Assembly (NCBI GenBank): GCA_035221665.1
Contig: CM069141.1
Coordinates: 41,974,001-42,038,000, forward strand
Direction: 5' to 3'
DNA from: Okamejei kenojei
Taxonomy: Eukaryota
Length of the DNA: 64,000 nt
Position 1 is the first letter of the stretch. The number at the start of each line of letters is the position of its first letter. Shown one piece after another: positions 31,681 to 57,580 of the stretch. The notes under the pieces are model-generated. The model ran no database searches, was not told where the DNA came from, and saw only the letters and a program-made list of their open reading frames with translations. The position numbers and the translations under genes are program-made.

Positions 31681-31715
31681 CTACGATGAAAGATGTTCAT
31701 TTTCTGTTTGTTTAC
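31681..31715 (-). CDS. Candidate terminal coding exon (cytoplasmic tail) of TIM copy B
   Basis: Acceptor atttttgtttctgattcatag|GT; phase 1 matches the TM exon and gives (C)KQTENEHLSS*. Nearby alternative acceptors (~31807, ~31957) would give even shorter tails. Confidence 0.5.
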
Positions 31716-32610
31716 CTATGAATCAGAAACAAAAATATTAATGATCTTCGATCAATTCGAAATATTTATGATCTTACAAGTATGTTTCACCAAATTTATA
31801 TATTAACCTGAAGCATAAAATGTTCCCAATATTGATTTGGATTTTTCAGTAACAGAAACATCTTCATAAATTCAGTATTAATTTCTGTATTAATATAGTA
31901 TTACAATTCTGAACTGCTATCAGACTTTCCATGTGGCAGTAATTCCTATATTCTATCCTGAAAGATCCAGTTTCAGTTTTAGCAATGCCATTTAATCCTA
32001 TTCTCCCAATTCATTAGAAAATATTTCTTTCAATATCCATCAATTTACTTTAACACCTTGAAGACATTCGTGCAGGGTCTTAAAATTGCTAAGATTACAT
32101 AAACTTTCACCTAGAAGTAGTTTCTTCCCACATTGAATCCAATATCATGTCCTTCTCCCCAATTTATCTTGCCTCGTTAACTTGCCAACCTCTATTACAT
32201 ATCTGTTCTCCATGTCTTTAAAATAATGTCTGCACCCCATCCATGACCTCTCCTCAATGTAAGCCTGCATCATTCTCGAGCTCTGCCTCCTAGCATTAGT
32301 CTCCCGTTCTTTTAATTCTCCTAATGTGCTGTCATTCCTCATCTCCACCATCAAAGGCAGGGGCCTTGGCCAATATAGCTCTGGCCGTATGAATGCTTTG
32401 AAATCCCCATCTATTTGGTTACATCTTTCCTATTTCTTCAAATGTGTAATTTTAATTCTTAAAATGTATTTTCTAATTAACCTAGCATTCATTCCCCTCC
32501 CCTGCATTAACTCACATCCATGGTCACATATTGCAAGTTAACAATAACTTGCACAAATATCACAAGAAAGTGTGTTGACTAAAGGCAGGTTCCTAGACAG
32601 TGATACTTAC

Positions 32611-32716
32611 ATATCCATTGGCAAAGGAGCAGAGTGATTGAAAGAAAGCAGATGACTAAGACACGGGCTACCCAGGGAAGATAAGAAATCAAGATGTTTA
32701 CCAACTCATCGGGAAC
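32611..32716 (-). CDS. Transmembrane exon of TIM copy B
   Basis: tatttcag|GTT...ATAT|gtaagt; 106 bp, phase 0 to 1; VPDELVNILISYLPWVARVLVICFLSITLLLCQWI; lies in non-repetitive DNA downstream of the IgV exon. Confidence 0.75.
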
Positions 32717-32809
32717 CTGAAATAGATACACAATATCAGAGAACAAGATTTTCTTCACTATTTTAAATCTAAAATGCATGAACTGCAACCATTGACCATT
32801 ATAAGGTCA

Positions 32810-33450
32810 AAAAGTCATAAAGCCATTCGGCCCATCAAGTCTACTCCACCAATCAATCATGATTGAATCATAGGTCTCCCTCCAAACCCTATTCTCCTGC
32901 CTACTCCCCATAACCTCTGAGACCTGTACTAATTAAAAATGTTTCTATCTCTGCCTTAAAAATATCCACTGACTTGGCCTCCCCAGCCTTCTGTGGCAAA
33001 GAATTCTACAGATTCACCACCCTTTGACGAAATAAATGTCTCCTCATCCCCTTCCCAAAAGAACGTCCTTTAAATTCTGTGGCTATGACCTCTAGTCCTA
33101 GACTCTCCCACTCGTGGAAACATCCTCTCCACATCCACTCTACTGAAGCATTTACTATTCTCTATGTTTCAATGAGGTCACCCTTCATTCTTCTAAACTC
33201 CAGCGAGTACAGGACCAGTGCCGACAAACATTCATCATAGATTAACCTACTCATTCCCTGGATCATTCTCGTCAACCTCCTCTGGACCCTCTCCAGAGCC
33301 AGCACATCCTTCCACAGATACAGTGCCCAACATTGCTCACGATATTCCAAATGCGGCCTTGCCAATAGAGCCTCAGCATTACATCCCTGTTTTTGTATAC
33401 ATGACCTCTTGAAATAAATGCTAGCATTGAGTTTGCTTTCTTTACTACCG
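32810..33450 (-). mobile_element. CR1-type LINE 3' fragment
   Basis: ORF 33162-33485 contains RPHLEY..LERVQRR.TRMI..LYSLEFRRMKGDLIE. Confidence 0.9.
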
Positions 33451-33846
33451 ATTACGCTAAGTAAAGTGCAATTGGAACCAAACAAACTGATAGAAGAACA
33501 TAACTATAAGAGCAGGAAGTCCCTCAAGTCATCTCTGGTGTTCAATAAGACCATGACTGACTGAGCTGTGGCCACAACTCTTCCCTCCCTGTGTGATGCT
33601 CAATGGCTGATCAATCGATAACCCATATTATCCAGTTGCCAGCATTCGGCTTGGAATGATAAAGCTGCCAGGCCACATATTTGGACAAGAAAATAGTTAA
33701 CCTTTCAGATCAATTAAATGATAGATCATCCACCTGAAACATAAATTCTGTTTCTCCCTTCACAAATGCTGTCTAACCTGCTGAGTATTTGGGGCATTTT
33801 ATATTAAATTTCAGATGATCAGAAGCACAGTAAATGTCCTCATGTA

Positions 33847-35057
33847 CAGTGCCCTCCATAATGTTTGAGACAAAGACCCATCATTTATTTTATTTGGCTC
33901 TATACTCCACAATTTGAGATTTGTTATATAAAAAAATAACATATTGTTAAAGTGCACATTGTCAGATTTTAATAAAGACCATTTTTATATATTTTGGTTT
34001 CAACATGTAGTAATTACAGCAGTGTTTATACAGACCCCCCATTCATTGGCACAACTTTGGTCCCCATGTTGATAAACAGCAATAACAGTTTCCATAGGTG
34101 ATGGAAAGACTGGAGGAAAGATAAGGTGCTGAGAGCTCTCTTATACATGCATTAAGTAGGTATGTTCCAATACTTTTTAAATGCCATTTTCTCCTGCCTG
34201 TCCGAGATATATTTTCTCGGGCTGCAAGGCAATTCAGAAAAATCGTTCCGACTTCCGTTCTCGGAAGTTTTTTTAAAAAAATCGCGGGACAATTTAATCG
34301 CTGGAGTAAAATAACGCCGACAGCGGGACGGATCTCACATAGGGGACAAACATCAGGTAAGTCGTCTATTTTACATGTAAACTTGTTTCTTAGGATGACT
34401 TTAATCAAAATTTCATTGCCGAAAATGTGATTTTGGCCCCATACGAACCGGAAGTGTTTTTTCTGCCGATATGGGGTTCAAATTCACTGCAACCGCAACG
34501 TTCCAATCGATCGCGTTCCACAAAATCCCACTCGCAAGATGATTTAAATGGCCATTAATTTACGGGAATTAAACATTAAATTCCTTCCATTTGGCCTATA
34601 AATTCATGACAATGAGATTTAAAAATCATGTTTAATTGTGGATTCTTGTCTGAATGTTATTTCAACACTTAGGCTATTTAAAAATGTTCATCTTTTCTTA
34701 AGAAATGGATAGATGTTTAGATCTAGTAATTGAATTTTGTAATTAGCTACGATTAGGTATGCTTTAATTTCAGATCATCCAAGTAAGATTGTTTCATATT
34801 TGTTTCAGAATGCTTTAATCTATAATAACTGAAAATGTATAACTGAATTATGGTGCCCTGAAATAGGGGGACTATGTATAAACACAGCTGTAATTTCTAA
34901 AAGATGAAACCAAAATGTATTAAAATACCATTTAATAAAATCTGACAATGTGCACTTTAACCACATGTGATTTTGCTTTATTACAAATCTCAAATTGTGG
35001 AGTACAGGCAAATAAATAAATGATGGGTCTTTGTCCCAAACATTATGGAGGGCACTG
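33847..35057. mobile_element. Non-autonomous Tc1/mariner element with ~200-bp TIRs
   Basis: ta|cagtgccctccataatgtttg ... caaacattatggagggcactg|ta; inverted arms ~33847-34040 and ~34850-35057. Confidence 0.85.
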
Positions 35058-35894
35058 TAAATGCAAAAAAAAAAAAGAATTTCCCTATTTATTTATTTAG
35101 ATATGTTTTCTCTTTATCTAAATAGGTAACATGCTTGTCAGTTTCTCAAACCCTTGGTGTGCTAAATCTAATATCTAATATGCAGTCCAATGGCCTCGTA
35201 TTATCACCTATTAATTGCTGAAAAGTTTAGTTTGTATCTTCCTCATCCTACACCTTCAACCGTCTACTTTTGATGCTCTGTTTGAATGAAATCAGCTCCA
35301 CTTTTACATTTTTCTCTGTCTTGTACTTGCTCATTTAAATCAGCAAGATCCAGCAGATCTGATAAGGCCCTCCATGTGAATTTTGTCAGAGAAAGAGAAT
35401 GATTTTCCTCCTCAAAATAAAGAAGTGCCCATTTCTCTATATGATTGATCACAATCCAAATGAAATCTCATTCTCAGTTGTTTCACAATCGAGCTGTAGA
35501 TTCCTTTGATTACATTTATTATTTGTTAATGATGCTAATCTGTTTTCTCTTAAGTGTAAATTACAAGAATTTTAAGGGGGGGATTCCAAATCTTGACAAT
35601 ATCAGAAATCCCTAGGAGGGTGAAAAAAAGTCTCCTGCTTTTGAATGTACAGGTGGTTCTGCTATCACGCATGTTTCTGTTACTCAAATTGAATATAACA
35701 CGAGTGATGAATTAGGGAACAATAATTGCATTATGTGCCTAATTGGTTAGAACCTAAGTTTGACAGGGAACCAGAGAACTAATTAGAAGTTACTTTGGAA
35801 CTCGACAAGCAGAAGAAAAGCTGCCTTGCATTTAAACAGTATAGAGAAAAAAACATCTGTTTTCATGTAATCTCCCAGCAGCTCTTGGACAACA

Positions 35895-36223
35895 TACTTG
35901 CTGGGCCCATCAGCCGCACCTGAGCAGTTGGGGGAGGGTTGCCGGGTGTACTTCATTCGCGTCACAATGGGGTTTTGTATGATTTAGCAAAGTAATTCAC
36001 TTTATAAACTTTAATTAACCACTTGCCGGGCCCGTCAGCCTCGTCACAATTGAAAATGGCGCCGGGCCCGTCAACCCTCCCCTAACGGCGCACGCACGGA
36101 TACTGGGTCTGGCACCTTCCCCCAACTGCGCAGGCGCGGCTGACAGGATGAGATCGTCATTTTCAGATCGCCTCGAGACTTTCAGAAACTGCCATCACAA
36201 AGGGGCCCAACGGGTCGTCTAGT
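35895..36223. mobile_element. Possible Helitron-like non-autonomous element
   Basis: GC-rich with an internal inverted repeat (cagccgcacctgagcagttgggg / ccccaactgcgcaggcgcggctg); ends gggcccaacgggtcgtCTAGt. Confidence 0.35.
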
Positions 36224-37460
36224 TACCTCTAAAGAACACAGCTGACACTTTAACTGTAGCCGACCACTGAAATTGACAAGCAATCACTCCTATGGGCATG
36301 TGTAACAATGCTCATAATGTGTGATCAGAACAGTATAGGTTTCAACAATGTTTTGAATGGAGATAAGTCTGGATCTTGCAGGAAGTTACTAAATTGGAGT
36401 AAGGCAAATTACAACATTATTAGGCAATTGTTCAGGAAGATACATTGGAAGCAGTCGTTAGTATGTAAGACCCTATCTGACATGTAGGAGTCGCTTTAAG
36501 GATAGTTCGTCAAAGTTCACGACTGGCATATTCCAGGAAGGAGGAGGGATAAGGATAGTAAATTAAGGGAACCTTGGATGACCAAAAAAAAATGGATGAT
36601 TGGAATATGATACCAACACAGATAGTAAGTAGTCTGGATTTTCCCCCAAAACACTGTGCAAATTGGCACAGGGAAGCTACAAGCAGAGAGTTAAATGTTT
36701 GACTCAAATATTGGTGCGGAAGAAATGGGTTTCAATTCATGGGACAGTGGCGGCAGAGTTGCAGGGAAAGAATAAATTGTTCATCTGGGACATGTTTTAC
36801 TTGAATCATGCTGAGACAATGTGAAGACCCCGCCAGCACGCATGCGTAGCATATCGTCGCGCGCATTTGCATCGTCAGGCTGGGGGGGGGAGTGCGCTCT
36901 CTCCTCCGGCTCCTTCATAAAAGGCCGGCAGGTAAGTACTTACCTTCACTCCACAGGATGGACAAGAGCAAGAGGAAGGCGACGCTGTTGAGGAACCGAG
37001 CTGCATCGACCAGCCAACGCACCGGCAGCTTCGAGACATGTGGGGGCAAGAATGCGGAAGTCGGGCGCTCCCGCTACTTTAGCGCCCGACTCATCACCTG
37101 AGTGGTTTACCGCCCCGGAGCTGGATGCAACTGATCCAGACTTCGAGCCCCCTTCCCCCAAGAAAAGAGGGGGGGAAACAGGTACGTGCCAAGGGGCTTC
37201 GCTCATCGCAAGCGACCCCACCCCGAGTTCCAGTAGACCCGAGGGGGCTGGGCCGGGGGACAGCTGCACTATAGGGGAGCCCTACAGCTGTGCACCACCA
37301 CGTACCACTGCCAGGGAGATCTGCCATAGTGCAGTCTGGCAGCGCTGCTGCTGCGTCGAGCAGGCCTGCAGGAGCAGGTGCCGCCGACTAAACACCCCGT
37401 CAGGCTGCGGTCAAGGGCGGAGGTGGCAGCAGTAGACGGTCGGTCAGCTCAGCTCTGGGA

Positions 37461-38741
37461 GTGGCCGACCATGCGCCTCCACGTCAAAAATTGGCCGATT
37501 GTGGAGGTAAGCCTGCACGGACTCCGGGGAGCCAGGTTCTGGGGGCCGGCGCCGATCCAACTCACCTGCCTTCGTATCAGACAGGTGGGCCGCCACAGTC
37601 TGGAAGAAGACAGACTAGCGGAGAGTCCGTGCGGGAGTCGTATGAGCCTACTCGGGCGGTAGGTCACGACAACCTGCCATTGGACCCTAGACAGCACCTT
37701 ACGGAGGTGTGGTCCGATGGTGGAAGCCCCAGTGATTTTGCAGGGCCTGGGGAAGTCGGCTTGTCCGCTGCACATAGCAGGGACGGTCGCATAGAGCGGT
37801 TGGAGCTCTTAGTGGAGCAACTCCTCCAGCGGGACCGGGAACGGGAAGAGCGGGACTCACGGGCATCCACAAGCCGTGCAAGGAGCCCGCTCAGCATCTC
37901 GTCGTCACCAGCCAGAAGTGCTAGCAGTTGCCCAGCCGCTGTGTTTGAAGACGACCCAGGACAGCCAGTGACCGCTGAGCCAGAGCATGAGGAGGATATG
38001 CTGGACGAGGTGGGCAAGTTTGCCGCTACTACACAAACAGGGGAACCCCTGCACCACAAACTGGCGGGCACCATTGATTACCTGACTACTCACCAACTCC
38101 AGAGTCAGGTTCTCAATGATACCATAGAGAAAATAAAACCGCCCGAGAACTGCATCAACCTCAGTGTGCCCTTGGTTAATGCCCAGATCTGGGGACACTT
38201 GAGTACGGCCACCAGGATGCAGGATGTCCGCCTCCAGCGTATCTTAAAGGTTCTCTCCACGGGCATAACGGCGTTTGCTAGGACCCTGGACGGGGATAAT
38301 GTGTCCAGTGAACAACAAGATGCACTGGCACTCCTATGCCACGCCCAGTATGAGATAAACTGCCTGCGTAAGAGCTCCATTAAGCCCACACTCAACCCCA
38401 AATTCGCGGGGTTGTGCCGTCCATCAACCGCTCCACCGCCTCATCAATTGTTTGGAGACCTGTCCAAACAGGTGAAGGAACTGGACGAGGAGGCCAAAAC
38501 AGCTGGCCTCATGAAACCTCCTACGGCCAGACTTCACCCATATCACCGGCAACAGCCAAACACAACCTGGAAACCACGACTGCCGGACAGGACACAAAGG
38601 ACCTATCCACCTCCACTTCCCCAAACACAACGACCTTTTTTAGGGCAAGGCCAACAGTGGCCTGCATGGAAGATGCGGCCGCCATCCCGTCAACCTCCAC
38701 AACGTCCACCCAAAACACCATACGTAAGGAACCGTCACTAA
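37461..38741 (+). CDS. DIRS ORF1 (gag-like); true start probably further upstream (~36958), frameshifted
   Basis: 426-aa ORF with P.NC..L.VP.VN..IW, D..LQ, and LFG motifs typical of DIRS gag; Pro/Gln-rich tail. Confidence 0.8.
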   Translation: MADHAPPRQKLADCGGKPARTPGSQVLGAGADPTHLPSYQTGGPPQSGRRQTSGESVRESYEPTRAVGHDNLPLDPRQHLTEVWSDGGSPSDFAGPGEVGLSAAHSRDGRIERLELLVEQLLQRDREREERDSRASTSRARSPLSISSSPARSASSCPAAVFEDDPGQPVTAEPEHEEDMLDEVGKFAATTQTGEPLHHKLAGTIDYLTTHQLQSQVLNDTIEKIKPPENCINLSVPLVNAQIWGHLSTATRMQDVRLQRILKVLSTGITAFARTLDGDNVSSEQQDALALLCHAQYEINCLRKSSIKPTLNPKFAGLCRPSTAPPPHQLFGDLSKQVKELDEEAKTAGLMKPPTARLHPYHRQQPNTTWKPRLPDRTQRTYPPPLPQTQRPFLGQGQQWPAWKMRPPSRQPPQRPPKTPYVRNRH

Positions 38742-38743
38742 CC

Positions 38744-40576
38744 ATGGAGGTAAGGGGGCCTGGTTCCTCTCACGCTGTAGCATCCCCTCCTGCACAAATT
38801 GGTGGGCGATTGCGCGCTTTTGTGGAAATATGGAACACTGTCACCACAGATGAGTTTATTTTACAAAGTGTTCAAGGCTATGTTATAGAATTTATTGGTG
38901 GTGTAAATCCCCCTACCCAGCATTCGCCTCATAGGAAGTTTACACTATCCCAAAAAGAGGTGGAGGCAGGACATGCTGAAATTATACGGCTAGCAGCAAC
39001 AGGGGTAATTGGCAAAACAACGCATGAACCCATTGAGTTTGTGTCCAACATTTTCACCAGAATTAAAAAAGATGGGGGATGTCGGATTATAATAGACTTA
39101 ACTGAGCTGAACACTTTTGCACAATATACCCACTTCAAAATGGACACTTTTGAAACAGCCAAACAGATGGTTTACCCAGGGTATTTTATGGCATGCATCT
39201 ATTTAAAAGATGCATACTATATGGTGCCCATTTCTGAGGCTCACAGGAAATTTCTGAAGTTTGTCTGGAAGGATCAATTATGGGAATACAAGGCATTGCC
39301 CAATGGGATCACCACAGCACCTAGGCTGTTTACAAAATTAGTAAAACCTATATTGGCTCTTCTCCGACAACAAAATTATATGGTTATGGCATATTTGGAT
39401 GATATCCTCATAGTGGGTCAGACCCTCCAATTGGCTACACGGGCAGTGGCTGCAACTAAGGCTCTCTTTGAGAAGCTGGGATTTGTAATCCATCCAGACA
39501 AGTCAAAATTGCACCTGGTACGGGTTATGGACTATTTGGGGTTCACTCTAGACACCAACTTAATGAAGATTACCATCCCAACCAATAAAGCTACTGCTAT
39601 TAAGGAAGAGCGCCACAGTCTTGCTTGCGCCAGGGTGCCGACCATTCGGCAAACGGCAAAAGTAATAGGGAAATTGGTAGCTACATTCCCAGCTGCACAA
39701 TTCGGACCACTACACTACCGAAATTTACAAAGAGCAAAGATCACAGCATTAAAAGCAAATGCTGGGCACTTTGATCGGCCAATTCGGTTACCACTAAAGG
39801 CTAGAACCGAGCTACTATGGTGGGTTGACAATATTAGTGAGTGTCATAGACCCATCATAGTCAGCAACCCAGACGTCGTGCTACAAACTGACGCAAGCGC
39901 ACAAGGCTGGGGAGCAACTGATACGATGTCCAGTTGTGGTGGTAGATGGAATTCTCGTGATTCTACCTTCCTGGAGTCACATGGGATAAATTATATAGAA
40001 ATGCTGGGGGCATTTCATGGACTGCGGGCTTACTGTACTAACTCACAGAATTTACATGTCCGCCTCCAAATAGATAACACTACAGTGGTGGCTTACATCA
40101 ATCATATGGGTGGTATCAGGTCGCTATCTTGTGATGAATTGGCAAACTCAATTTGGCACTGGTGCATTGAAAGGAATATTTAGATTACAGCGACCTATTT
40201 GCCAGGGAAGCTTAATACAGTGGCGGACACCAGGTCACGAGTATTCAATGACAACATCAAGTGGATGTTGAACCCCCAAATTTTTGGAGACATTATAGCT
40301 CACTATGGGACACCAGATATTGACCTTTTTGCGTCCAGGTTGAACCATCAGATACCAACGTATGTGTCTTGGGAACCAGACCCTGGGGCAATAGCAATTG
40401 ATGCGTTTTCTATCCATTGGGGGAAATGGTTTTGCTACGCATTTCCCCCATTCTGCCTCATCAGTCGGGTATTGCAGAAAATTAAATTGGATTCTGCAAC
40501 TGGCATATTGATCATTCCCGACTGGCCTACACAACCATGGTACCCGATGGTCGTTAAAATTTTAAAACAACCATGA
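38744..40576 (+). pseudogene. DIRS reverse transcriptase-RNase H-methyltransferase ORF (one premature TAG at 40181-40183)
   Basis: HFKM, YLKDAY (first catalytic D replaced by Y), LPNG..APR.FTK, YLDD, YLGF; RNase H TDAS..GWG, INYIEM, DNTT; MT region DIDLFAS..YAFPPF. Confidence 0.92.
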
Positions 40577-40662
40577 TTGGGAAAACACCCCAAATTGATT
40601 ACTCACCCCATTACGGGGGATAGTCATCCTTGCCATGGTCACCTAAACTTATTGGCCTGCAG

Positions 40663-41618
40663 GTTCTGAAAAGACCACTCATCCAGGCGGGCATCTCACC
40701 ACGAGCCATGGAACTCATCTCCGCATCATGCGGAGAATCAACTCGGAAACAGTACCTCACGCAAATCAGAAAGTGGGAGGCATTCTGTGCTCGTACCAAC
40801 AAGACTTCCAACACAGCAACGATACCTGATGTCCTGGAATTCCTAGCTTGCCTCCATTTCGATGCTGGCCTTAGCTACAGTGCCATCAACAGCGCCTGGA
40901 GTGCGCTGTCCTCATACCTGGATATAGGTATAGGCTCCAACCACCTGGTGTCTAAACTCATGAGGGGAGTGTTCAACACCAACCCTCCGCGACCCAGATA
41001 TTCTTTCACGTGGGATGTGGGGATCGTGCTGACCCTACTGAGGAGCTGGGCTCCAATGAATGAGCTACCACTGAAACAGCTCACCCTCAGATGCTAATGG
41101 CACTGACTACAGCCCAACGAGTCCAGACGTTATAAAAACTGCGACTGGACAGCATGGTGGCCACCCCTGGTCGAATAAATTTCTTTGTCCAAGATTTATT
41201 GAAGCAGCACAGGCCAGGGGCGCATGGGCAACAGTTGGAATTTCGGGCATACCATGTAGATGCCACTCTCTGCATAGTCACCCATCTCCACCACTACATC
41301 GGGATTACAGGAGCCATCAGGATGAAGGAACAGGGGTTCCTCATCAGCCACAAACCTCCGCATCATCAGGTGACTGTACAGACTATCGCCAGGTGGCTCA
41401 GGGTCGTGCTGGATGCAGCAGGAGTTGCTACTGACATTTTTAAGTCTCATTCCACTAGGGCTGCATCCACATCAGCGGCGAGGGCCATGGAGGTGCCCAT
41501 GGACCACATCCTCGCCACCACGGGCTGGGCCAGTGAAGAAACCTTTCAACGGTTCTACAATAAGCCACTGGTCGCCCCTGCGACATTCGTAGAAGCTGTG
41601 CTGGGAACCGCTCAGTGA
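40663..41618 (+). pseudogene. DIRS tyrosine recombinase (frameshift near 41090)
   Basis: ST.KQY..W..FC, LSYSAIN..SALS, PPRPRY..WDV, then HSTRAASTS and GW.SE.TF.RFY carrying the catalytic Tyr. Confidence 0.92.
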
Positions 41619-42558
41619 ATGTCTGTCCCCGAATTAGGGGTTATTTGTTTGTTTATTTGATTAATAAATTGTGTTGCTTTTTCAGCCAGTTTCAACTGAA
41701 CTGCATTTACAGCCTTCCTCCATCAGAATGGCGGCAGTGTGATAAGCATGGACGTTGTCCAGGGCGTGAAATCACAGAGCTTTGAAATCTTCACGAACTC
41801 ACTCACGTGACTCCGAAGTAAAATAGTAAGATTAAACGAGAACTTACCAAGTTTGAAGGTTGATCTGTATTTTACGAGGAGTCGCGGTGAGGGATTTTGT
41901 GCCCCCCGCTCCCACCCTCTATCATAGGATCAACTAGGAAGTTCTGCGTTCTTCATCTTACTATTTTTAGTCATGGTGCGTTCTGTGATTCCACACCGCT
42001 GCTTTGAAGGATGCTGCGCATGCGTGCTGGCGGGGTCTTCACGAAATCCCTCACCGCGACTCCTCGTAAAATACAGATCAACCTTCAAACTTGGTAAGTT
42101 CGCGTTTAATCTTACTATTTTATGTCTAAAAATACTTTGACGATATTCTTAAAAGGTGAAATGGATGAGAATATCGAAATTCCTAATTAATATTTATGGG
42201 AATTACATAAGTGCAGAAATTGAGGAGTGGATGATTATAAAGTCTATGCAGATGTTCAAGAAGTGGTGAGATGTAAACAAGGTATAAATGGTCAAGACCC
42301 TTAAATGACAACTTCACGTGACATCTACATTTGTTTTTTGACTGATTACCTGAGAGTCTTGACTTCCGGTTACTAGCTAGAGATGCATCCACAAGACCAA
42401 TGGCCCAGTGCTATTCTAATTTCACTTTCCACCACAAACTAGGTGCACAGGTAGGTAAAGAGCCAAGGATGGTGGGACCACATGGAGGAGGTCCAGTGTT
42501 CCGTGAACCTTAGGGAAGCCTGGTTCAGAGCAAGTCCACAGGCCCCCAACACCCAAGA

Positions 42559-42903
42559 GTGGCACGGTGGTGCAGCGGTAGAGTTGCTGCTTTACAGCGC
42601 CCGAGACCCAGGTTCGATCCTGACTACGGGTTCTGTTGTATGGCATTTGTACGTTCTCCCCGTGACCTGCGTGTGGTTTCTCTGACATCTCCGGTTTCCT
42701 CCCACACTCCTAAGACGAACAGGTTTGTAGGTTAATTAGCTTGATATAATTGTAAATTGTCCCTAGTGTGTGAAGGATAGTGTTAATGTTTTCTAAAGAC
42801 TCTTCTCCCCGGTGTCATCCCAGTTAAAGCGCTGATAGGTGCGAACATGGTGGGCCGAAGGGCCAGTTTCCACACTGTATCTCTGAACTAAACTAAAACT
42901 AAA
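42559..42903 (+). mobile_element. tRNA-derived SINE (HE1/V-SINE-like), full length
   Basis: A box tggtgcagcgg, B box ggttcgatcc, central conserved body and (aaact)n tail. Confidence 0.9.
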
Positions 42904-43069
42904 CCTGCTACTCTCTGGTCATGGAAGGGATGAATCCCACTCTTCATGAGTAGTGAGCCTCATTTTCGCACATTTTTTGCAAACTGCATAATATTAATTA
43001 GTAGCTACCACTTCATATCCAAACACAACCACATGGCTGGAGCTCTGTCGTCACAGCCTTGGAGGTCAT

Positions 43070-43455
43070 TAGTATGTAGATGCATTGTTGTTTGGACAGA
43101 GGAGGAAGAAGAATGGTTCTCAAGAACTTTTGAGATTATGGTCCTTCAAGTGCATTCCCAGGACCACTGGAGTCTAAAGCTAGCGACCATAGGTTCAAGG
43201 CGATAGGGGGAAGATTTAATAGGAACCCAAGGGACAGGAACTTGAGGCAACTTCTTTCACACAGAGGGTAGCTTCAGCAGAAGTGGTAATTGTTACATTT
43301 AAAAGACACTTGCATAGATACATGGATAAGAACATTTTGGAGGTATATGGGCCAGATGCAAGTAAGTCGGATTGACTTGGTTAGGCAATGTGGTTGGTAT
43401 GGACAAGTATGGTCAAGAGGCTAGTTTCCATGCTGTGAAGCTCTATGACTCTCTT
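43070..43455 (+). mobile_element. Old CR1-type LINE 3' fragment
   Basis: Degraded 3' ORF/UTR ending ctctatgactct. Confidence 0.6.
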
Positions 43456-44870: not shown

Positions 44871-45032
44871 TCAGCGGGCAGGCAGCATCTCTGGATAGAA
44901 GGAATGGGTGACGGGATGACATTTCCAAATTTCTCCAGCCCCATGTGTTCACTTTTTTCAACTAGCATCTGCCCTTTCTTGTGTATGTCATTATTTGTAT
45001 CTACAGTGCCTTGTGTCTTGGCAATTCATGAT

Positions 45033-45520
45033 TCACACACACACAATGCTGGGGTAACTCACACACACACACACACACACACACACAATGCTGGGGTAAC
45101 TCACACACACACACACAATGCTGGGGTAACTCACACACACACACAATGCTGGAGTAACTCGCACACACGCACACACACAATGTTGGAGTAACTCGCACAC
45201 ACACACAATGCTGGGGTGACACACACAATGCTGGGGTAACTCGCACACGCACACACACAATGCTGGGGTAACTCACACACACACACAATGCTGGGGTAAC
45301 ACACACACACACACACACAATGCTGGAGTAACTCACACACACACGAACAATGCTGGAGTAACTCACACACACACTCACACACACAATGTTGGAGTAACTC
45401 ACACACACACACAATGCTAAGGTAACTCACACACACATACACACAATGCTGGAGTAACTCACACACACACACGAACAATGCTGGAGTAACTCTCACACAC
45501 ACACAATTCTGGAGTAACTC
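45033..45520. repeat. Compound minisatellite: about 16 units of aatgctgg(g/a)gtaactc separated by (CA)n
   Basis: Read directly. It runs straight into a Penelope-derived fold-back at 45520-45635. Confidence 0.95.
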
Positions 45521-45765
45521 AGCGGGACAGGCAGCATCTCTGGAGAGAAGGAATGATGATGTATCGGGTCGAGACCCTTCCTTAGACCACTACCCAGAGA
45601 TGCTGCCTGTCCCGCTGAGTTACTCCAGCATTTCGTCTAACGTTTGGTGCCGCTACAACTGGGTCGTTGCTGAGAGACTGATTTATTGCAGCATTCATTA
45701 AAAGTGTTCAATGTTCTAGATATACTTTAGATTTTATGTAGTTTGAGCCTTTGATAAATGCTTAC

Positions 45766-45827
45766 TTGTTCGGAAGTACTGTTGATTCTATTCGTAGTTA
45801 TCGTAGAGCTCAGAATTTCTCGGGTAC
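45766..45827 (-). CDS. Candidate Ser/Thr-rich stalk exon of TIM copy B
   Basis: tctctttccttag|GT...CAA|gtaagc; 62 bp, phase 1 to 0, bridging the IgV (ends phase 1) and TM (starts phase 0) exons; (G)TREILSSTITTNRINSTSEQ with an N-S-T sequon. Confidence 0.65.
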
Positions 45828-47589: not shown

Positions 47590-47900
47590 ACACCCACATC
47601 TCCAGCAATGAACATCTAATTATACTCAAATGGATCGGTTTGGTAGACTATGATCTTTGCATACCCAGCACCAGATTTCCGAAGCAGACATAATATTCGG
47701 AGCTCTATCATAGGAATAACTTACAAGGTGGACAGAGAAAAAATCCAAAGACATTTTCAAAACCTCCACGAAAATATTGCAAAATTTCCATTGATTCCTG
47801 GGAAACTCTAAGCCATGACCTCTTGATATGGAGAAGCATTTGGGTTGGCACTGAGAATCTTGCGTTCATGTGTGAGAAGCACACGAGAGAAGGAGCACCC
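47590..47900 (+). mobile_element. Degraded RTE-clade LINE 3' fragment
   Basis: Residual RFPKQ..SEL..G..GGQRK..KD motif. Confidence 0.5.
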
Positions 47901-48179
47901 CACATCATGGACCAACCCTCTTGCCCCATCTACATTGGATTCCGTTACCACAGAATCCACTTAACCTGAAACTGAGGGACTGCCAAAGAAGATGCGACCC
48001 AATAGTTTCATTGCGTGAGTTGGCCCATGAACGCTCTCAGCTAAATCATAAATTTATTGAGATACTTTGCCATTCAGTGAATTGGCATCCTTCTGTATTT
48101 CCCTCTGTCCCTCTCCAAGCCAATCACCCAGATTCCTCCTTTATGTTCTCCATTAGGCAAAGAATCAGCCTCTAAGCTG

Positions 48180-49105
48180 GTGAGAGTGAATGCGGTAACA
48201 AAAGCTGTATGTCACTATTGCTGCCTGATGTAGGACATTTCGAAAATTATCAGAAAGATGAGTAGATTGTAATATGTTTAACCCAAGAGCTTACATACTG
48301 GGGAACCATGATGGGAAAAAAGTCCAACATAGTGAAGGGAATTAACGATGTTAGGAGAGGCGTTGAATTGACCTATCATGGTATTTAGATTCCACAACAT
48401 AATTATAGCTGAGTTGCTTCCATAGTGAAGTTGAAATAGACATTGTGGGTTGTAAACTAATCACTGAGAGGGACAGAGGCAACTACAGATGGAGGGTCAA
48501 TTCACTGGATGGCAAAACTCCATCAAACCCTGACCTCACTCCCAGCACTTTGACTAATCTCTTCTATTTGGACTGTGATAATGGGAGAGGGTACTAAAGG
48601 CAGTAATAACACAAACCACGGAGACAGAATGAGGCCAGTCGCATACTATTCAACTATGCAAAGTCTAGTGGTGGCTGGGCTGCATTGATGTAGTCAAATA
48701 TTTAACTTTATGACAAGGGCAGTGGAAGTCTCAGAATCCATCTCGCTGAGGGTGACAATAGTTTTCCACTCGACTCTTAGAAGCAGGGAAGTACACTGCG
48801 ACTCTTTGAAGCAAGGAAGTTATGGACAGCACTAGATAGTTGACATTCCAAATGGGAGAGTGTGTCTTACCTGCTGACAAACATATGCAGATAGATTTCA
48901 CATGACCCTTACCCTAGTCTCAAAATAAAAGGTAATGTTTAGTACTGATTGACCACTTTATCCACTGGCAGAAGACATTCCCATGCCAAGAAAGTACAGC
49001 TAGAATTGTGGCATAGTGCCAAATAATAATATTTTGGATTACATTTCACATGACTCTGATCAGGGAACATATTTTACAGGGAAGGTGATGAAGGAGACTT
49101 GTCCT
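48180..49105 (+). mobile_element. ERV pol/integrase remnant
   Basis: MQIDFT (~48885-48902), LVLIDHF..W and DSDQGTYFTGKVMKETC (~49052-49102), matching an integrase core. Confidence 0.7.
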
Positions 49106-49599
49106 GAATTGCATCATATCTGTAGAGAGCTGGCGGTGCTGTAACCATCCTGGTAAGTGGAGAGAATTCTACTGCAATTCTGCTTTGGGACAAAGTGGAA
49201 AAGCCTTGGGTATCTGGGAATAAATCCCAAATTACAATTAACTGTCTATTTCAAACTCTAGACCAGCAGGCACATCTAGGTCAACTTTCAGCTGCTTCTT
49301 CGCCTTTACATGTTCAGTCCATCAGCAAGGAAATGCTGTAAATAGATCAGCGTTTAAGCTGCTAGCAAACATAACCATTGCTGTATTGCAGCAGTCAAAC
49401 ACACACTTTCAGTGTGCAAAAGTAAGCACTCCCACAGCAGGGATGATGTACTCCAAGTGAAACTATCTCAACCATTGAAGAATGAACAGGTGTCATTTTG
49501 TTTACACATTCTGATGTGGGTGTGACTAGCAAGGACAGCATTTATTGCCAATCTTTGTTCCAAATGTTCACTGGCATCATTCCCCAACTCCTTTTCCGC

Positions 49600-49860
49600 T
49601 TCACTTATGACTGCATCGGGGCTGCCTCCTGCACTCATGCTGAACCCAACGATTTATTAGTTTTACCATTAACTTCCACCCTGTCCTCAAATTCACAGAC
49701 TCAGACACCTATCTCCCCTTCCTTCAATTCTCTGACTCCGTCCCATGGCCAGATTATCCATTAACATCTACTACAATCCCACTGACTCTCACAGTTATAT
49801 GGACTACACCTCCTCTCACCCTGCCTCTTGCAAAGATAGCATCCCCTATTCTCAACTTTT
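49600..49860 (+). mobile_element. Penelope-like RT fragment (degraded)
   Basis: IYYNPTDSHSYMDYTSSHPASCKDSIPYS at ~49765-49853. Confidence 0.75.
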
Positions 49861-50179
49861 AATTCAACTTTAATTGTGCAGAGACTACAATTGACTACCT
49901 TAGTAATCAACTGCTAAAAAAAGCTATTTTTCAGTAGCTCTCTCACAGTCATCAAAAACACGTTCAACATAACTGACAATTTCCATTACATTTCAATGTT
50001 ACCCACGTGCCTATCCTTCATGAAGATATGAAAACCCTATAAAAAATGCAAATGGTTCTTTTGTGGCTACCACAGGAAGAGGTGTTCTGCGGCACTGATG
50101 CACTTTTACTCGTGCCAGATCAACCCAATATGGGTCCTGCATGAAATTCATACGACATGACATTATCAACTTCACACAA

Positions 50180-51280
50180 GCCAGCATGGTAGGCTGCTCT
50201 GGAAGGTTAGATTGCATGGGATCCAAGGGGAGATAGCTGATTGGATAGCAAATTGGCTCCTTGGAAGGAAGCAGAGGGTAATGGTGGAAGGTTGCTTCTC
50301 CGTGGTGTGGTGTGCTGGACCTGTTATTGTTTGTCATCTACATCAATGATTTGGATGAGAACATACTGGGCAAGATTAACAAGTTTGCTGATGATACAAA
50401 AGTTAGTTGTTTTGCAGATAGTGAAGATGGTTGTAAACAAATGCAGCAGGATCTGGATCGATTGGCCAGGTGGGTGGAGGAATGGTTGATGGAATTTAAT
50501 ACAGAGAAGTGTGAGTTGTTGCATTTTGGGATGTCGAACAAGGTCAGGACCTAAACAGTAAATGTTAGGCCTCTGGGGGGTGTTGTAGAGCAGAGGGATC
50601 TAGGGGTACAGGTGCATGGCTCCTTGAAGGTCGAGTCACAGGTAGATAAGGTGGTCACAGAGGCTTTTGGCACTTTGGCCTTCATCAGTCAGAATATTGA
50701 GTATAGAAGTTGGGAGGTCATGTTGCAGTTGTATAAGACATTGGTGAGACCGCATTTAGAATATTGTGTACAGTTCTGGGCACCATGTTATAGGAAAGAT
50801 ATAGTTAAGCTTGAAAGGGTACAGAAAAGATTTACGAGGATGTTGCCAGGACTAGAGGGTGTGAGATATAGGAAGAGGTTGAGTAGGCTGGGTCTCTATT
50901 CCATGGAGCGTAGGAAGATGAGGGGGGATCTTATAGAGGTATACAAAATCATGAGAGGAATAGATTGGGTAGATGCACAGTCTTTTGCCCAGAGTAGGGG
51001 AATCGACGACCAGAGGACATAGGTTCAAGGTGAAGGGGGAAAGGGGTAACTTTTTCACACAAAGGGTGGTGTGTGTATAGAACAAGCTGCCAGATGAGGT
51101 AGTTGAGGCTGGAACTATCCCATCATTTCAGAAACATTTATACAGGTACATGGATTGGACAGGTTTGGAGGGATATGGACCAAATGCAGACAAGTGGGAC
51201 TAGTGTAGCTGAGACATTGTTGGCCGGTGTGGGGAGATGGGCCAAAGGGCTTATTTCCACACTGTATCATTATATGTCTC
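50180..51280 (+). mobile_element. CR1-type LINE 3' portion
   Basis: LLFVIYINDLDE, KFADDTK, QQDLDRL, LYKTLVRPHLEYCVQFWAP, RGDLIEVYKIMRG. Confidence 0.93.
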
Positions 51281-51729
51281 TACCAGCACAGGCCATTGCC
51301 CAAATTTATGATAAATGTATTATAAATAACCAGCAATTATTTTTTCTTCCTCTCAACTACACACTCAACACCATGAACTGGACCTACAGGACCTATCCTT
51401 CCAGGGACTGAGTTTTCAGTGAACACTTCTCCAAACATCCTCGGATCCACCTGGCCAGGTCCTGGGGTTTAATCCACCTTTATGTCTTTTAGGACTTCTC
51501 CTTCTTGGTAATGTTGAAATGCTCCTTGATTTTACTGCTCCCTCTCCTGATCTCACTAGCTTCCACATACTTCTCCACAGTAAACACATTCATTTAAAGT
51601 GAAGTATTAATTTAAAACCTCACATATTACCCATAACTTCATAAATAGATTACCACACTGACACATTACCTACTCTCTAAGTTTTAATATACTTGTAGAA
51701 TCTTTTATGATTTTCCTTTATCTAGAATT

Positions 51730-52190
51730 TACTCAGATATAGGAAAGCATGGACTTATTAAGGATAGTCAGCATGGTTTTCTTTGTGTGAGGTCCCTTCT
51801 CACAAATTTGATACCGATCTTTTTGAGGAGCTGACAAAGATGATTGATGAGGATAGGGCAATGGATGTTGTTTACATCTAAATGGCCCTAATGAAACATT
51901 CCACAAGGTCCCTCATGGTAGGCTGATCCAAAAGATTAAGGCATATGGGATCAACAGAGACTCGGTAGAATGGATTCAAAAATAGCTTATCCATAGAAGA
52001 CAGAATGTAGTGGTGGAGGAGTGTTATTCTGACGGGAGGTGTGTGATCTGCAGTGTTCCAGAGGGGTCTGTGCTGTGAGCTCTGTTATTTGTGATATATA
52101 TAAATGATTTGGATGAAAATGTAGATAGGCTAGTTAACACATTTGCAAACAACATACAGTAACAATTGGTGGAGTTACAGAAAGTAAACA
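51730..52190 (+). mobile_element. CR1-type LINE RT fragment (degraded)
   Basis: SQHGF, KVPHGRL and YINDLDE remnants. Confidence 0.75.
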
Positions 52191-52519
52191 AAGGCAAACC
52201 TATACTTGCTCCACTCGTCTGTGTTTGGACCACATTCTACTGAACCATTTTTATAAAATGGTACAGCACAGAAACAGGACCTTTGGACAAAAATGTTTGT
52301 GCCAAACATGATGCCCAGTTAAACTGATGTCATCTGCCTGTACATGATCCATATCCCTCAATTCCCTGCACTTCCATATGCCTATCTAAAAGCCTCTTCA
52401 ATGCCGCTATCATATCTGCCTCCACCGCCTGCCCTGGCAATGCATTCCAGGTCCCAACCACTCTCTCTGTTTAAAAAAACTCGCCCTGTACATCTCCATT
52501 AAACTATACACCTCTCATC

Positions 52520-53330
52520 TATAAAGTATAAAATATAAAGTATCCTTTATTGTCATTCAAACTTGTTAGTTTGAACAAAATTACATACCTTGCAGTCATG
52601 ACAGAGAATAAAATAACAGAACACACAAAGAACACAGTTTAACATCCACCACAGTGAGTCTACTCGGTACCTCCTCACTGTGATGGAAGGCAAAAGTGTT
52701 AAAGTCCTTGTCTCTTCCTTCCTTGTTCTCCCTCTGCATTGAGGTGATCCAGGCTTTCGATGTCGGCCCCCCCGTCGGGTGATGGTAAGTCCCGCGGCCG
52801 AATCCGAGCTCCGCGAACGGGCCGGTTGAAACTCCGCGGCCCGGGGCGGACGAAGCTGCCACCCTCCAGTCCAGCAGACGAAGCTGTTGTTGCGGGAGCT
52901 CCAGAGAATTGGTCACTAACCTGGGACATGCGAGCTCTCGATGTTGTCGTCAACTGGGCCCGCGGCCGAAACCTCCGAGGCTCCGAAGTCGGGCCGCCGC
53001 CACAGCGCCACCACAGCCCCGAAGTCAACCAGCTTCTCGATGGTGAGTCCTGGCTCTGCCTCCGGAGCATCGAGGTCGGCCCCAGTTAGAGGCCGCCAGC
53101 TCCGCGATTAGGCCTCAGCGCAGACAGTGACTGAGATACGACAAACAAAAGGTTGCATCCCCCCGAAGGAAGAGACTAAAACAAGTTTCCCCCGCTCCCC
53201 ACATATACACAACTAAAAATAAACTAAGACATACGTCCAAAAAAACAAAAGAAAACAAAAAGAAGAAAAAGACAGACGGACTGCAGGCGAGCCGCAGCTG
53301 CTTGGGCAGCCTAGCCACTTCCGGAGTATT
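52520..53330 (-). mobile_element. CpG-rich unclassified repeat inserted in a minus-strand CR1 3' end
   Basis: Hairpin cacagtgag...ctcactgtg near 52650-52682 and AATAAA on the minus strand; the host CR1 occupies ~52260-52520 and resumes at ~53340-53485. Confidence 0.7.
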
Positions 53331-53489
53331 TAGCTATAGCTTATAGCTAAGCCTTCTATTCTTGGACACTTCCACCCTTGGAAAAAACGTTCTGACTGTC
53401 TACCCTATCTATGTTTTTTATAATTTTATATAATTCTATCAAGTCTCCCCTCAACTTCTGACATTCCAGAGAAATCAATCAAAGTCGAA

Positions 53490-54580
53490 AATTAGGGCAC
53501 ATGGTATTGGGGGTAGAGTGCTGACATTATAGAAAATTGGTTGACCGACAGGAACAAAGGGTAGGGATTAACGGGTCCCTTTCAGAATGGCAGGCAGTGG
53601 GGTACCGCAAGGCTCGGTGCTGGGTCCGCAGCTATTTACCAAGTACATCAATGATTTAGATGAAGGGGTTCAAAGTAGCATTAGCAAATTTGCAGATGAC
53701 ACAAAGCTGGGTGGCATTCTGAAATGTGAGGAGGATGCTATAAGAATGCAGGGTGACTTGGACAGGTTGGGTGAGTGGGCAGATGCAGTTTAATGTGGAT
53801 AAAGGTGAGGTTATCCACTTTGGTAGCAAAAACAGGAAGGTAGATTATTATCTAAATGGTGTCAAGTTGGGAAAAGGGGAGTACAACGGGATCTGGGGGT
53901 TCTTGTTCATCAGTAAATGAAAGTAAGCATGCAGGTACAGCAGGCAGTGAAGAAAGCGAATGGCATGTTGGTTTAGTAACAGGAGCAAAGAGGTCCTTCT
54001 GCAGTTGTACAGGGCCCCAGTGAGTATTTTGTGCAGTTGTACCTGGAGTATTTTGTGCATTTTGGGTCCCCTAATTTGAGGAAGGACATTCTTGCTATTG
54101 AGGGAGTGCAGCGTAGGTTTACAAGGTTAATTCCCGGGATGTCATATGCTGAGAGAATGGAGCAGCTGGGCTTGTATACTCTGGAATTTAGATGGATGAA
54201 AGGGGATCTTATTGAAACATATAAGATTTTTAAGGGTTTGGACATGCTAGAGGCAGGAAACATGTTCCCGATGTTGGGGGAGTCCAGACCTAGGGGCCAC
54301 AGTTTAAGAATAAGGGGTAAGCCATTTAGAACGGAAATGAGGAAACACTTTTTCTCACAGAGAGTTGTGAGTCTGTGGAATTCTCTGGCTTCCCGGGGGC
54401 GGTGGAGGCCGGTTCTCTGGGCTCTTAAAGATAGCGGTCAGGGGATATGGGGAAAATGCAAGAACGGGGTACTGATTGGGTACTGATTGAGGATGATCAC
54501 ATTGAATGGTGGTGCTGGCTCGAAGGGCCAAATGGCCTACTCCTGCACCTATTGTCTACTGTCTATTTTCTATTGTCTAT
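53490..54580 (+). mobile_element. CR1-type LINE 3' portion
   Basis: SGVPQGSVLGPQLF..INDLDEG..KFADDTK, EGVQRRFTRLIPG and a (ctattgt)n tail. Confidence 0.93.
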
Positions 54581-55200
54581 TCAACCATTCCCTTCATCTG
54601 AAACCCTCTAATCCAGGCAACATTCTGGTAAACCTCCTCTGCACTGTCTCCAAAGCCTCGACATCTTTCCTATAATACATGATCAGAACTGCCACAATAC
54701 TCCATATGTAGCCTAACCACGATCCTATAGAGCTAAATCATGACCACCTGATTCTTATATTGAATGCACCTAACATTGAAGGAAAGCACCCTATCTATGT
54801 GTGCTGCTATCTTCAATGAGCTATGAACTTGGACTCCGATCCCAGTGCACATCAATGCTGTTAAGGATCTTGCCATTAACTATATAGTCTCTCCTGACAT
54901 TCAACCTCCCAAAGTGCAACACCTCACACATGCTCAGGTTTGAATCCATAAGCCATTTCTGCAACAAATCTATATCCCACTGTATCTTCTCACAGCATTC
55001 ATTACTGTTTGCAACTCCTCCAATGTTGCTGTCATCAGCAAACTTACATTTAGGTCATTGATATATATCATAAACTGCAGAGGTCCCAGCTGAGATCTCT
55101 ATGGAGGTCCACTGGTGACAGACATCTAGGAAAAATATCTACCTTCCACCACAACCATTTTCTATGAATAAGCTAGTTCTGAATCCAAATCTATGTATCT
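54580..55200 (-). mobile_element. CR1-type LINE fragment
   Basis: Antisense LETVQRRFTRMLPGLEG and KFADD-like remnants. Confidence 0.75.
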
Positions 55201-56599
55201 GTCCAAATGTCGTTTATACATTCTAACTCTAACTACCTGAACTACTTCCTGCGGCAGCTCGTTCAATTTCTCAGAGGTGAATATGCAACATCCCAAGGTA
55301 TTATTTCAAAGAACAGAAATAACCTCAGTTCTTGGCCAATAATCAGTCCTTAATTAAAATCAATTTAAAAATCTACATCACAATCTATATCTCATAATCA
55401 TCACATTCTTGTCTGTAGAAACTGGCTTTCCATTTGTTGTTCAGTACTTTGAAATCTCCTGACAGTTTTAAAAATACTTGATAAAATGAATGTCCCATTT
55501 CACTTTAATCACAAATATTTCCCAACTACATTTTGCAATACTTCACCCAATTTAAATCCATGATATTTCATGTTGTTCTAATAGAAACATTAAAAGCAAT
55601 TTCAAGGCATCCTTATCCACTTTAATCAGCTGCAGTCAAATCATGCAGTCTATGGAAATAGAAATATATTGCAACAGACATTAGAAGACAACTTGTCATA
55701 GTTTGAACTTTTAGTCTGACCTTCAAATGTCGAAGCTGTGACAGAGTTTGTATCCTGTGCACCGACAGCCTCATTTGTGGTTAAAGGATTTTGTGTGGTG
55801 ATCTCTGGAAGAAGAAATAATAATTTATTGCGCTGGTGCTGGTGAAGACATGTTCTTTCTCACTCACTGCTTTGCCACATATTGTATCATTCAGCTCACA
55901 CACAGCTAACCCACTGAGTAGAATATAGAACCTGTGATTGTGGTGTTTTAGGACATTCATAGGGCCTTTCCAGATTTTCCACATTTAAAAATAATCATAA
56001 TCCATTGGATTGTACTTACTGATGTGCACTCATTATCAAAGGTAAAACAGCTTATGAGTAAACATTTTATTTTGAATTGGAAGCCTGAAGGTGGTGGGTG
56101 CAATGGGTCTGCCAGGACAGTGCAGCTGGTTGATCTCGGGGAAGCACTGGAAGTGGAACTGTGTGTGATGACGGGACTAGAAGTTGTCCAAAGAGTAAGA
56201 GGATGTAGGGGAGGCACTAAATGCTAACTTTGCATCTGTATTCATCAAGTAGAAGGACACGGAGGATAGTGGTCTATGACTTCTGAAAATGGAAACACGA
56301 GGGGAAACCGAGGCAATGAACTCCACGCAGGTGGCACTGGTCAGGATCGAACCTGAATCACTGCAGCTGTGGGTAAACTGTGCTAACAGCAACATCGTTG
56401 CGATGTCAGGAATGATACAGATATATGTAACATTGAGCTGTCTACAGTCCAAATTCACTAACACGTCTTGAAACAGTCCAAAGATCTCCACATGGCAACA
56501 AAACTAGCCAAGTCTTTGGGTATTTTTAAAGCGGAGATGCAATAACATATTATTGTGTAAATAATTATGGAAATCGGGATAAGCGTGAGAGACATTTAG

Positions 56600-57085
56600 C
56601 CGACATCAGAATTCCAAAGTGAGGAGAAATGACGGTAGATAGAAGCAAGAGCTGAAGGGACAACAACAGCCAGAGTGCTTGGCGAACAATGGCCGTTTGC
56701 TCACTGCATTTCATCAACTAAGGCATTATTTGTGTTTTATCTTGATTTCTTTGGCATCTAAAAAGTTTCAGTAGTAATAAATCTGGCTAAAATCTAAAAA
56801 TCGCCCATGGTTCTCAAGTGGGTTTTTAGAAAACGCCTCTGAAGCAAAATTTACAGCCAGATGTATCACTTCTGAGACTTTTTAGATACCAAAGGAACCA
56901 AGAAAAACCACAAAAATGCCTTACTGTTGATGAAATGCAGTGAGCAAACGCGATCATTCCCAATATTTTCAATTCCGATATCTGCACGGCCAATGTTCGC
57001 CAAGCACTTTAGCTGTTGTTGTCCCTTCAGCTCTCGCTTCTCTTTACCTTCATTTCGCTTCATTTCTGGAATTCTGAAGTTGGGT
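56600..57085. mobile_element. Fold-back THAP-domain DNA transposon remnant (copy B)
   Basis: Paralog of 1720-2220; ORF 56866-57111 contains RVCSLHF. Confidence 0.6.
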
Positions 57086-57232
57086 ACATGTCCACACAGT
57101 GCGAACTCCACACAGGTGGCACTGGCGGTTAGGATCGAACCTGGGTCACACAGCTGCGAGGAAACTCTGTCAACAGCAACATCGTTGCGACGGCAGGAAT
57201 GAAACAGAAACGTGTAACATTGAGCTACTTAC

Positions 57233-57580
57233 CATCCAAAACCAGGAGATTCAAATTCACTTTCACATCATTAAACGGTCCAGTGATCTCCACACGGCAG
57301 CAATACCAGCCGCCGTCTTCTTTCCGGAGCTGATTTATCGTGAGCGACAAGTCTCCTTGCTCAATGTTACCACCAAGCTGATATTTCTCGGATCGTGCTG
57401 AAGTTACTGTTGCTCCGTTTGTTTGAATCAGTTCAGCTCCACAGCCAAAGATCGGGCACTCTCCCCGACCCCAGCACATCGCAGTTTTACCATACTTTCG
57501 GACAGAGTAGTGGCACGGCAGAGTGATCGCCTGTCCCGGGTATCCTCGCACTGGTGATCCGGTGGCAAGGGCCACTCGAC
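57233..57580 (-). CDS. TIM/HAVCR-family receptor, IgV exon (copy B)
   Basis: 348-bp phase1-phase1 exon with canonical splice sites; LPCHYS..MCWGRGECPIFGC..GWYCCRVEITGPFND. Confidence 0.93.

Follow-up and report, generated by a model that had tools for sequence, protein, structure and literature searches.

Among the TIM-family (HAVCR-like) receptor genes of the skate Okamejei kenojei there is one whose transmembrane (TM) segment contains an arginine and whose cytoplasmic tail is 11 residues long and free of tyrosine, which raises the question of how such a receptor signals. This gene lies on the minus strand of a stretch of 64,000 nucleotides (contig CM069141.1 of assembly GCA_035221665.1, positions 41,974,001 to 42,038,000), which we call the window and which corresponds to C11:41974001-42038000 of the 2.76 Gb genome that was searched. 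As judged from the sequence, the receptor is likely to be adaptor-coupled and activating and to form part of a paired cluster, in which it is likely the activating twin of a neighbouring TIM gene.

Structure of the receptor gene

The gene comprises the following exons (window positions):
58456..58507, minus strand: exon of the leader (signal peptide), beginning at the probable start ATG; found by tblastn with skate proteins, GT donor, phase 1, start context
57233..57580, minus strand: TIM-type IgV exon with six cysteines and PFND instead of WFND in the FG loop; splice sites, PDB matches
55721..55804, minus strand: first stalk exon, rich in Ser/Thr, 84 nt long and in phase 1-1, skippable in frame; 79% identical to the Leucoraja exon, canonical sites, skipped in Leucoraja isoform X2
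45766..45827, minus strand: second stalk exon, 62 nt, phase 1-0; splice sites, skate proteins
32611..32716, minus strand: TM exon, whose residue 18 is Arg (codon 32665-32663); splice sites, conservation, joined to the tail exon in one X5 contig
31681..31715, minus strand: tail exon, 11 residues without tyrosine, then stop; identical tail in XP_055498902 and XP_032885391
31445..31552, minus strand: possible alternative last exon, end approximate; downstream AG acceptor, used by Leucoraja isoform X2; the frame changes here after about 11 codons, and neither an immunoreceptor tyrosine-based inhibitory motif (ITIM) nor an activation motif (ITAM) is present

Four of these exons (IgV, second stalk, TM and tail) had been placed in a preliminary description and are borne out, as they are bounded by AG acceptors and GT donors, follow the phases 1-1, 1-0, 0-1 and 1-stop and give one open frame when spliced. 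It had also been suspected that stalk exons were overlooked, and tblastn with skate proteins indeed revealed the 84-nt exon 55804-55721 with canonical sites and phase 1, as well as the leader exon, which was absent from the four-exon model and has a canonical site in phase 1. Once the 84-nt exon is included, the region between IgV and TM segment comprises about 58 residues, among them 18 Ser/Thr and one N-glycosylation sequon, and the short stalk of 21 residues proposed earlier has to be given up. Since this exon exists, the direct junction 57233>45827 represents an exon-skipping form: it matches Leucoraja isoform X2, but isoform X1 includes the 84-nt exon.

All exons of the resulting six-exon model are open and have canonical sites, and the model encodes 228 residues. 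It is identical to Leucoraja erinacea XP_055498902.1 at 192 of 229 positions, and because of this agreement it cannot be a product of chance. Both this protein and Amblyraja radiata XP_032885391.1 are orthologs that share the six-part structure (191-192 of 229 positions identical), and proteins of the same two skates are also the nearest ones over the IgV alone (82-84%). The RefSeq skate models start 48 nt further upstream (58508-58560), and their extra N-terminal residues are encoded by a dispersed repeat that recurs many times in the vicinity; translation more likely begins at the ATG at 58507.

The predicted junction 32611>31715 between TM and tail exon was found exactly in one contig of run X5, which skips 895 bases with GT-AG ends; this run stems from a related species that is about 92% alike, and its status as RNA is a guess. 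The read check covered the TM-tail stretch, which is unique to the Arg-type gene, in four of ten runs, whereas support for the remaining junctions comes from splice signals and RefSeq orthologs. Runs X1, X2 and X6 gave no coverage of the TM exon, and X1 is probably DNA; these gaps carry no weight.

The IgV domain and TIM-family membership

The TIM IgV is defined by six cysteines, four of them non-canonical, and by the metal/phosphatidylserine motif WFND of the metal-ion-dependent site of ligand binding (MILIBS), according to the available text of PMC9611583. All six cysteines are present in the window gene (Cys 22, 35, 41, 46, 93 and 94), and at the MILIBS position N and D are retained while W is replaced, giving PFND in the window gene and LFND in its neighbour, copy C. 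The best 15 PDB matches of the IgV exon are all TIM-4, TIM-1, TIM-2 or TIM-3 (E 2e-31 to 2e-22), and the next family, pIgR, follows at E 1e-11. A Ser/Thr-rich mucin-like stalk and a single TM segment, as expected for a TIM, are present as well. Human TIM genes are linked to the MED7/ITK/SGCD region. In the skate, MED7 shares the contig with the window gene at a distance of 2.1 Mb, and a gene of the sarcoglycan family is found 37 Mb away.

The residues right before FND in the FG loop vary among all close skate paralogs and orthologs (P0001, P0004, P0010-P0012 and the window IgV exons), and two of the five amino-acid differences between the two window IgVs are located there, so diversifying selection at these residues is possible.

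The transmembrane arginine and the tail

The tail exon was confirmed with 11 residues and no tyrosine, as originally described, and its junction to the TM exon is the one seen in the X5 contig. Likewise, the arginine was correctly located near the N-terminal end of the TM segment, since it occupies positions 6, 5 and 1 in the three best 19-residue Kyte-Doolittle windows; in the best 21-residue windows it is found at positions 3, 7 and 14, and in those of 23 residues at 9-11. The distance from the TM arginine to the next Lys/Arg is 19 residues in the window gene, 18 in Heptranchias and the two other skates, and 16 in Hypanus, Scyliorhinus and Mustelus. Between these two positions, the proteins of the sharks and the stingray have 15-17 uncharged residues, with hydrophobic residues preceding the arginine, and a run this short means that the membrane span must include the arginine.

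Conservation of the arginine across sharks and rays also held up. The Arg-TM exon is present in Leucoraja, Amblyraja, Hypanus, Scyliorhinus, Mustelus and Heptranchias, which together with this skate makes seven species, and in an alignment of eight proteins from these species L9, R18, V21, F24, I27, T28, L31 and W34 are invariant, the arginine partly by construction since the rows were picked for having it. No Arg-type TM exon that lacks the arginine was seen among 160 proteins. When the TM exon was compared with the PDB sequences, nothing matched at E<=10.

Such a receptor could alternatively be a non-signalling tether or decoy, which holds or competes for a common ligand and in which the arginine only marks the membrane edge or governs trafficking. 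TIM-4 has a tethering role, and this explanation would account for the tail without tyrosine and for the top window that has the arginine at position 1. We nevertheless consider it unlikely, as the hydrophobic run after the arginine counts just 15-17 residues in the sharks and the stingray, TIMs with a basic TM residue mostly have no tyrosine motif in the tail, and from sharks to rays the arginine has persisted although the majority of alignment columns around it differ. A receptor that signals through an adaptor is the reading we follow.

Adaptor genes

Basic-residue receptors that assemble with FcR-gamma carry an arginine in the TM segment's N-terminal portion, whereas type I partners of DAP12 have a central lysine, according to the available part of PMC1440944. 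By its sequence, the window receptor fits the FcR-gamma-coupled class: it has an N-terminal TM arginine and a short tail without a signalling motif of its own, and an ITAM adaptor with a TM aspartate is encoded in the genome. This FcR-gamma gene at C24:20.998-21.001 Mb has a TM exon with Cys and Asp and two downstream exons with tyrosine motifs, and its best PDB matches are FcR-gamma. When the TM exon was modelled in a complex with the skate FcR-gamma TM exon in two copies, the scores were 0.15 and 0.12 against a mark of 0.34, with no control folds, an outcome that weighs neither way.

The partner could also be a different one, namely DAP10, DAP12, CD3-zeta alone or a neighbouring TIM. A CD3-zeta gene with a similar TM segment lies on C12, and the arginine of NKG2D is described as pairing with DAP10 (PMC1440944, available part). 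However, in the same text a type I protein with an N-terminal arginine follows the pattern of FcR-gamma, the aspartate of DAP12 is at TM position 9 and its type I partners use lysine, so that another adaptor appears improbable, slightly more so than a tether or decoy, and FcR-gamma is the preferred partner.

The neighbouring genes

The tandem array suggested previously exists, with three tandem TIM IgVs on C11. Copy C, the partner downstream of the window gene, is made up as follows (window positions unless C11 is given):
3569..3620, minus strand: leader exon; tblastn with skate proteins
2366..2713, minus strand: IgV exon with LFND in the FG loop; 110/115 residues identical to the window IgV
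827..910, minus strand: first stalk exon; skate proteins
C11:41960747-41960686, minus strand: second stalk exon, left of the window; sequence comparison
C11:41955816-41955723, minus strand: uncharged TM exon, left of the window; sequence comparison
C11:41954316-41954292 and 41954198-41954133, minus strand: tail exons, left of the window; they end in the motif EDNIY

Copy C thus has leader, IgV and both stalk exons in common with the window gene, followed by an unrelated, uncharged TM segment and a different tail, and its structure matches XP_032885558 and XP_055498486. The two IgVs are 96% identical (110/115 residues; five non-synonymous and two synonymous codon differences), whereas the TM exons share 20% identity. 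The proposal of a paired-receptor-like cluster stands as far as the near-identical IgV next to another TM segment and tail is concerned, but the tail of the neighbour holds a tyrosine motif of the TIM-1/TIM-3 type and no ITIM. Around its sole tyrosine, position -2 is Asn and position +3 is Ser, which by the ITIM consensus places it outside this motif class. We take the motif to resemble those of TIM-1 and TIM-3, and it also occurs in alligator and other homologs. No ITIM-tailed paralog was present in the 264 kb around the window. TIM-3 itself has neither an ITIM nor a switch motif (ITSM) and signals via its tail tyrosines, for which both stimulating and suppressing results are reported in the available text of PMC8514831.

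To the right of the window, and hence upstream, copy A (C11:42075152-42051060, minus strand) has intact Arg-TM and tail exons with the same tail as the window gene, together with a one-base frameshift in the IgV, a divergent leader and no stalk exons that could be detected. It is probably a pseudogene by its sequence, an assembly error being possible. The state of copy A, the loss of one codon from the TM exon of the window gene and the origin of the RNA contig over this exon from a related species rather than from this skate would also suit a window copy that is decaying or not expressed as modelled, with function left to the orthologs. This is very improbable, as all six exons are open with canonical sites and the genome searches found no other intact Arg-type copy.

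In both genes the intron after the IgV (56318-57092 and 1431-2225) holds a partial, stop-containing duplicate of the 3' end of the IgV and an imperfect inverted repeat of about 500 bp. The intron between stalk and TM exon of the window gene contains two overlapping long open frames of 449 and 599 residues (37392-40180, plus strand), of which the second has an RVT_1 domain (E 8e-16), which identifies the region as a retroelement; it is absent from copy C. At 45034-45521, 245 bp after the second stalk exon, a CA-rich unit of 28 bp is repeated in tandem about 15 times.

Age of the transmembrane types and homogenisation of the IgVs

The Arg exon of the window gene is 77% identical to those of the two other skates, 61% to that of Hypanus and 38-55% to those of three sharks, and the TM exon of copy C shows 87-90% identity to the uncharged type of the two skates and 35-37% to that of two sharks. 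Arg-TM exons are 36-94% alike within their type, in comparison to 5-27% between Arg and uncharged type. By these identities, both types predate the split of sharks and rays. The IgV tree in contrast groups by lineage, with the window gene next to copy C (98/88 support) and the Arg protein of Heptranchias next to the uncharged one; the IgVs of these two proteins are identical, and both annotations might go back to a single exon. Forcing the seven Arg-type IgVs together against seven others costs 164.5 log-likelihood units and is rejected (approximately unbiased test, p-AU 8.4e-6), the groups being set by TM type after the first tree had been viewed and 14 of 40 rows being used. At the DNA level, window gene and copy C are 95-99% identical in 500-bp bins over leader and IgV; identity then drops to 93, 90 and 80-90%, and the similarity stops about 950 bp ahead of the TM exon. 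Judging from p-AU, the TM identity matrix and this gradient, homogenisation is confined to the ligand-binding exons. Homogenised ligand-binding domains are reported for paired opposing receptors in the available part of PMC3210942, and the combination of old TM types with IgVs that group by species marks paired receptors.

TIMs with a basic transmembrane residue in other vertebrates

A census of the best 150 representatives, in which rows are not independent and TM segments were assigned by a crude filter, gave 92 proteins with a TM segment, of which 16 have a basic residue within that segment (Arg in 14, Lys in 2). P0043 and P0083 are likely false positives of this filter, and P0050, P0055 and P0095 carry the Arg pattern and were missed by it. 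The median tail length was 19.5 for proteins with a basic TM residue and 43 for the others, and the tail motif E/D/Q-N-x-Y was present in one of the 16 compared with 32 of the 76 others (Fisher p 0.008 on non-independent rows). Among the 20 of 150 representatives that were looked up, Arg-TM examples come from the frogs Lithobates, Hyla, Phyllobates, Engystomops, Hyperolius and Dendropsophus as well as from gar, Albula and cichlids; no amniote was among the Arg-TM rows that could be named in this non-exhaustive sample. The IgVs of the frog, gar and teleost Arg-TM proteins do not group with those of sharks and rays.

Related IgV exons elsewhere in the skate genome

Two genome-wide IgV searches gave at least three TIM IgVs on C11 and at least one on C36, and no separate TIM-4-like gene was found in them, counts being lower bounds. 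The exon on C36 was considered as a canonical TIM-4 and rejected, as this IgV is the N-terminus of an adhesion G protein-coupled receptor with GPS and 7tm_2 domains. The exon is 44% identical to the window IgV, with LAND for WFND, and the gene (C36:14844481-14872670, plus strand; loci L004, L052-L054 and L057) is colinear with the 952-residue protein P0019, which has three such IgVs, and has its first TM exon twice, 5 kb apart. Furthermore, a large cluster of V-set exons with 29-37% identity to the TIM IgV lies at C24:5.1-6.3 Mb, on the contig of FcR-gamma, and two more V-set exons at C3:35.4-35.8 Mb.

Proposed mechanism

We infer that the arginine in the outer part of the helix would pair with the aspartate pair of an FcR-gamma (or CD3-zeta) dimer, and that clustering by ligand would lead to phosphorylation of the adaptor ITAM and recruitment of a Syk-type kinase. 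Gene conversion or unequal crossover would keep the two IgVs alike, so that the ligand would be common to both receptors and would probably be membranes bearing phosphatidylserine or a TIM-exploiting pathogen, and copy C would signal via its own tail tyrosine with either sign. Assembly of the window receptor with FcR-gamma through an Arg-Asp contact, ITAM signalling upon ligand clustering and a ligand in common with the tyrosine-tailed partner are, taken together, what we consider probable; gene structure, conservation, pairing and the presence of the adaptor gene come from the data, whereas assembly, ligand and sign are deduced.

Apart from the choice of the alignment rows and the identical Heptranchias IgVs mentioned above, several points speak against this mechanism. 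The 23-residue windows place the arginine at positions 9-11, and one 19-residue window has it at position 1, which is the membrane edge. The RNA support consists of one contig of depth 5.9, with 49 letters on its short side, from a related species and from a run whose RNA status was guessed. The TM exon of the window gene is one codon shorter than those of the orthologs, to which it is 77% identical, and the broken copy A is closer (86%). The tail of copy C is not an ITIM, so an opposing function of the two receptors would go beyond the data. Finally, binding of phosphatidylserine by the window IgV may be weak, as the first MILIBS residue is Pro and not Trp.

On a larger scale, it can tentatively be proposed, with odds that we put below even, that for a large part of jawed-vertebrate history the TIMs formed a family of paired receptors. 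A member resembling TIM-3, with a tyrosine in its tail, would have been accompanied by an FcR-gamma-coupled activating twin, with the IgV kept identical by gene conversion, and the twin would turn the exploitation of TIMs by pathogens, e.g., phosphatidylserine mimicry by enveloped viruses, into activation. The twin would survive in sharks and rays, have counterparts in gar, teleosts and frogs and have been lost towards mammals.

Relation to known receptors and significance

With mammalian TIM-1 (HAVCR1), TIM-3 (HAVCR2) and TIM-4 (TIMD4) the window gene has in common the six-cysteine IgV, the F-N-D of WFND, the Ser/Thr stalk and the single TM segment. Unlike these, it has an arginine in the TM segment, a tail of 11 residues that lacks tyrosine, Pro as the first MILIBS residue, a stalk of about 58 residues and a tandem partner with a homogenised IgV, and MED7 is not adjacent. 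The TM segments of mammalian TIMs are not known to be charged, and those of the TIM-4-like and TIM-1-like rows of our homolog set agree with this. The FcR-gamma-coupled receptors of the FcaRI type, to which GPVI, NKp46 and LILRA/PIR-A also belong, presumably work in the same way as the window receptor, but they carry C2-type domains of the leukocyte receptor complex, whereas the window receptor has a TIM V-set. The paired opposing receptors PIR, KLRC, KLRI, KLRB and KLRA are similar in their tandem genes, with ligand-binding exons that group by species and signalling exons that group by type; they differ in that the skate partner has no ITIM and could act with either sign, and the available part of that work does not list TIMs among its families (PMC3210942).

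The gene itself is already contained in RefSeq under routine names, as XP_055498902.1 and XP_032885391.1 are called 'TIMD4-like' or 'HAVCR1 homolog', names that mention neither the arginine nor pairing; the novelty lies in how the receptor is built and how this arose. TIMs that are paired or have an Arg-TM were not found described in the literature searched, whose coverage left most subscription journals outside, and the available part of a fish-immunity review mentions neither TIM-1 nor HAVCR nor mucin (PMC6795676). According to the available texts, drugs are directed at the checkpoint TIM-3, which has no ITIM and yet inhibits, and viruses attach to cells through TIM-1 (PMC8514831, PMC9611583). 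If the proposed reading is true, the TIMs would join the paired-receptor families through a conserved member that is coupled to an adaptor and has a homogenised ligand-binding domain, and this member would be evidence for FcR-gamma/Arg coupling in cartilaginous fish. Moreover, a natural pair of receptors that differ almost only in TM segment and tail would allow a direct test of the role of the TIM tail tyrosine.

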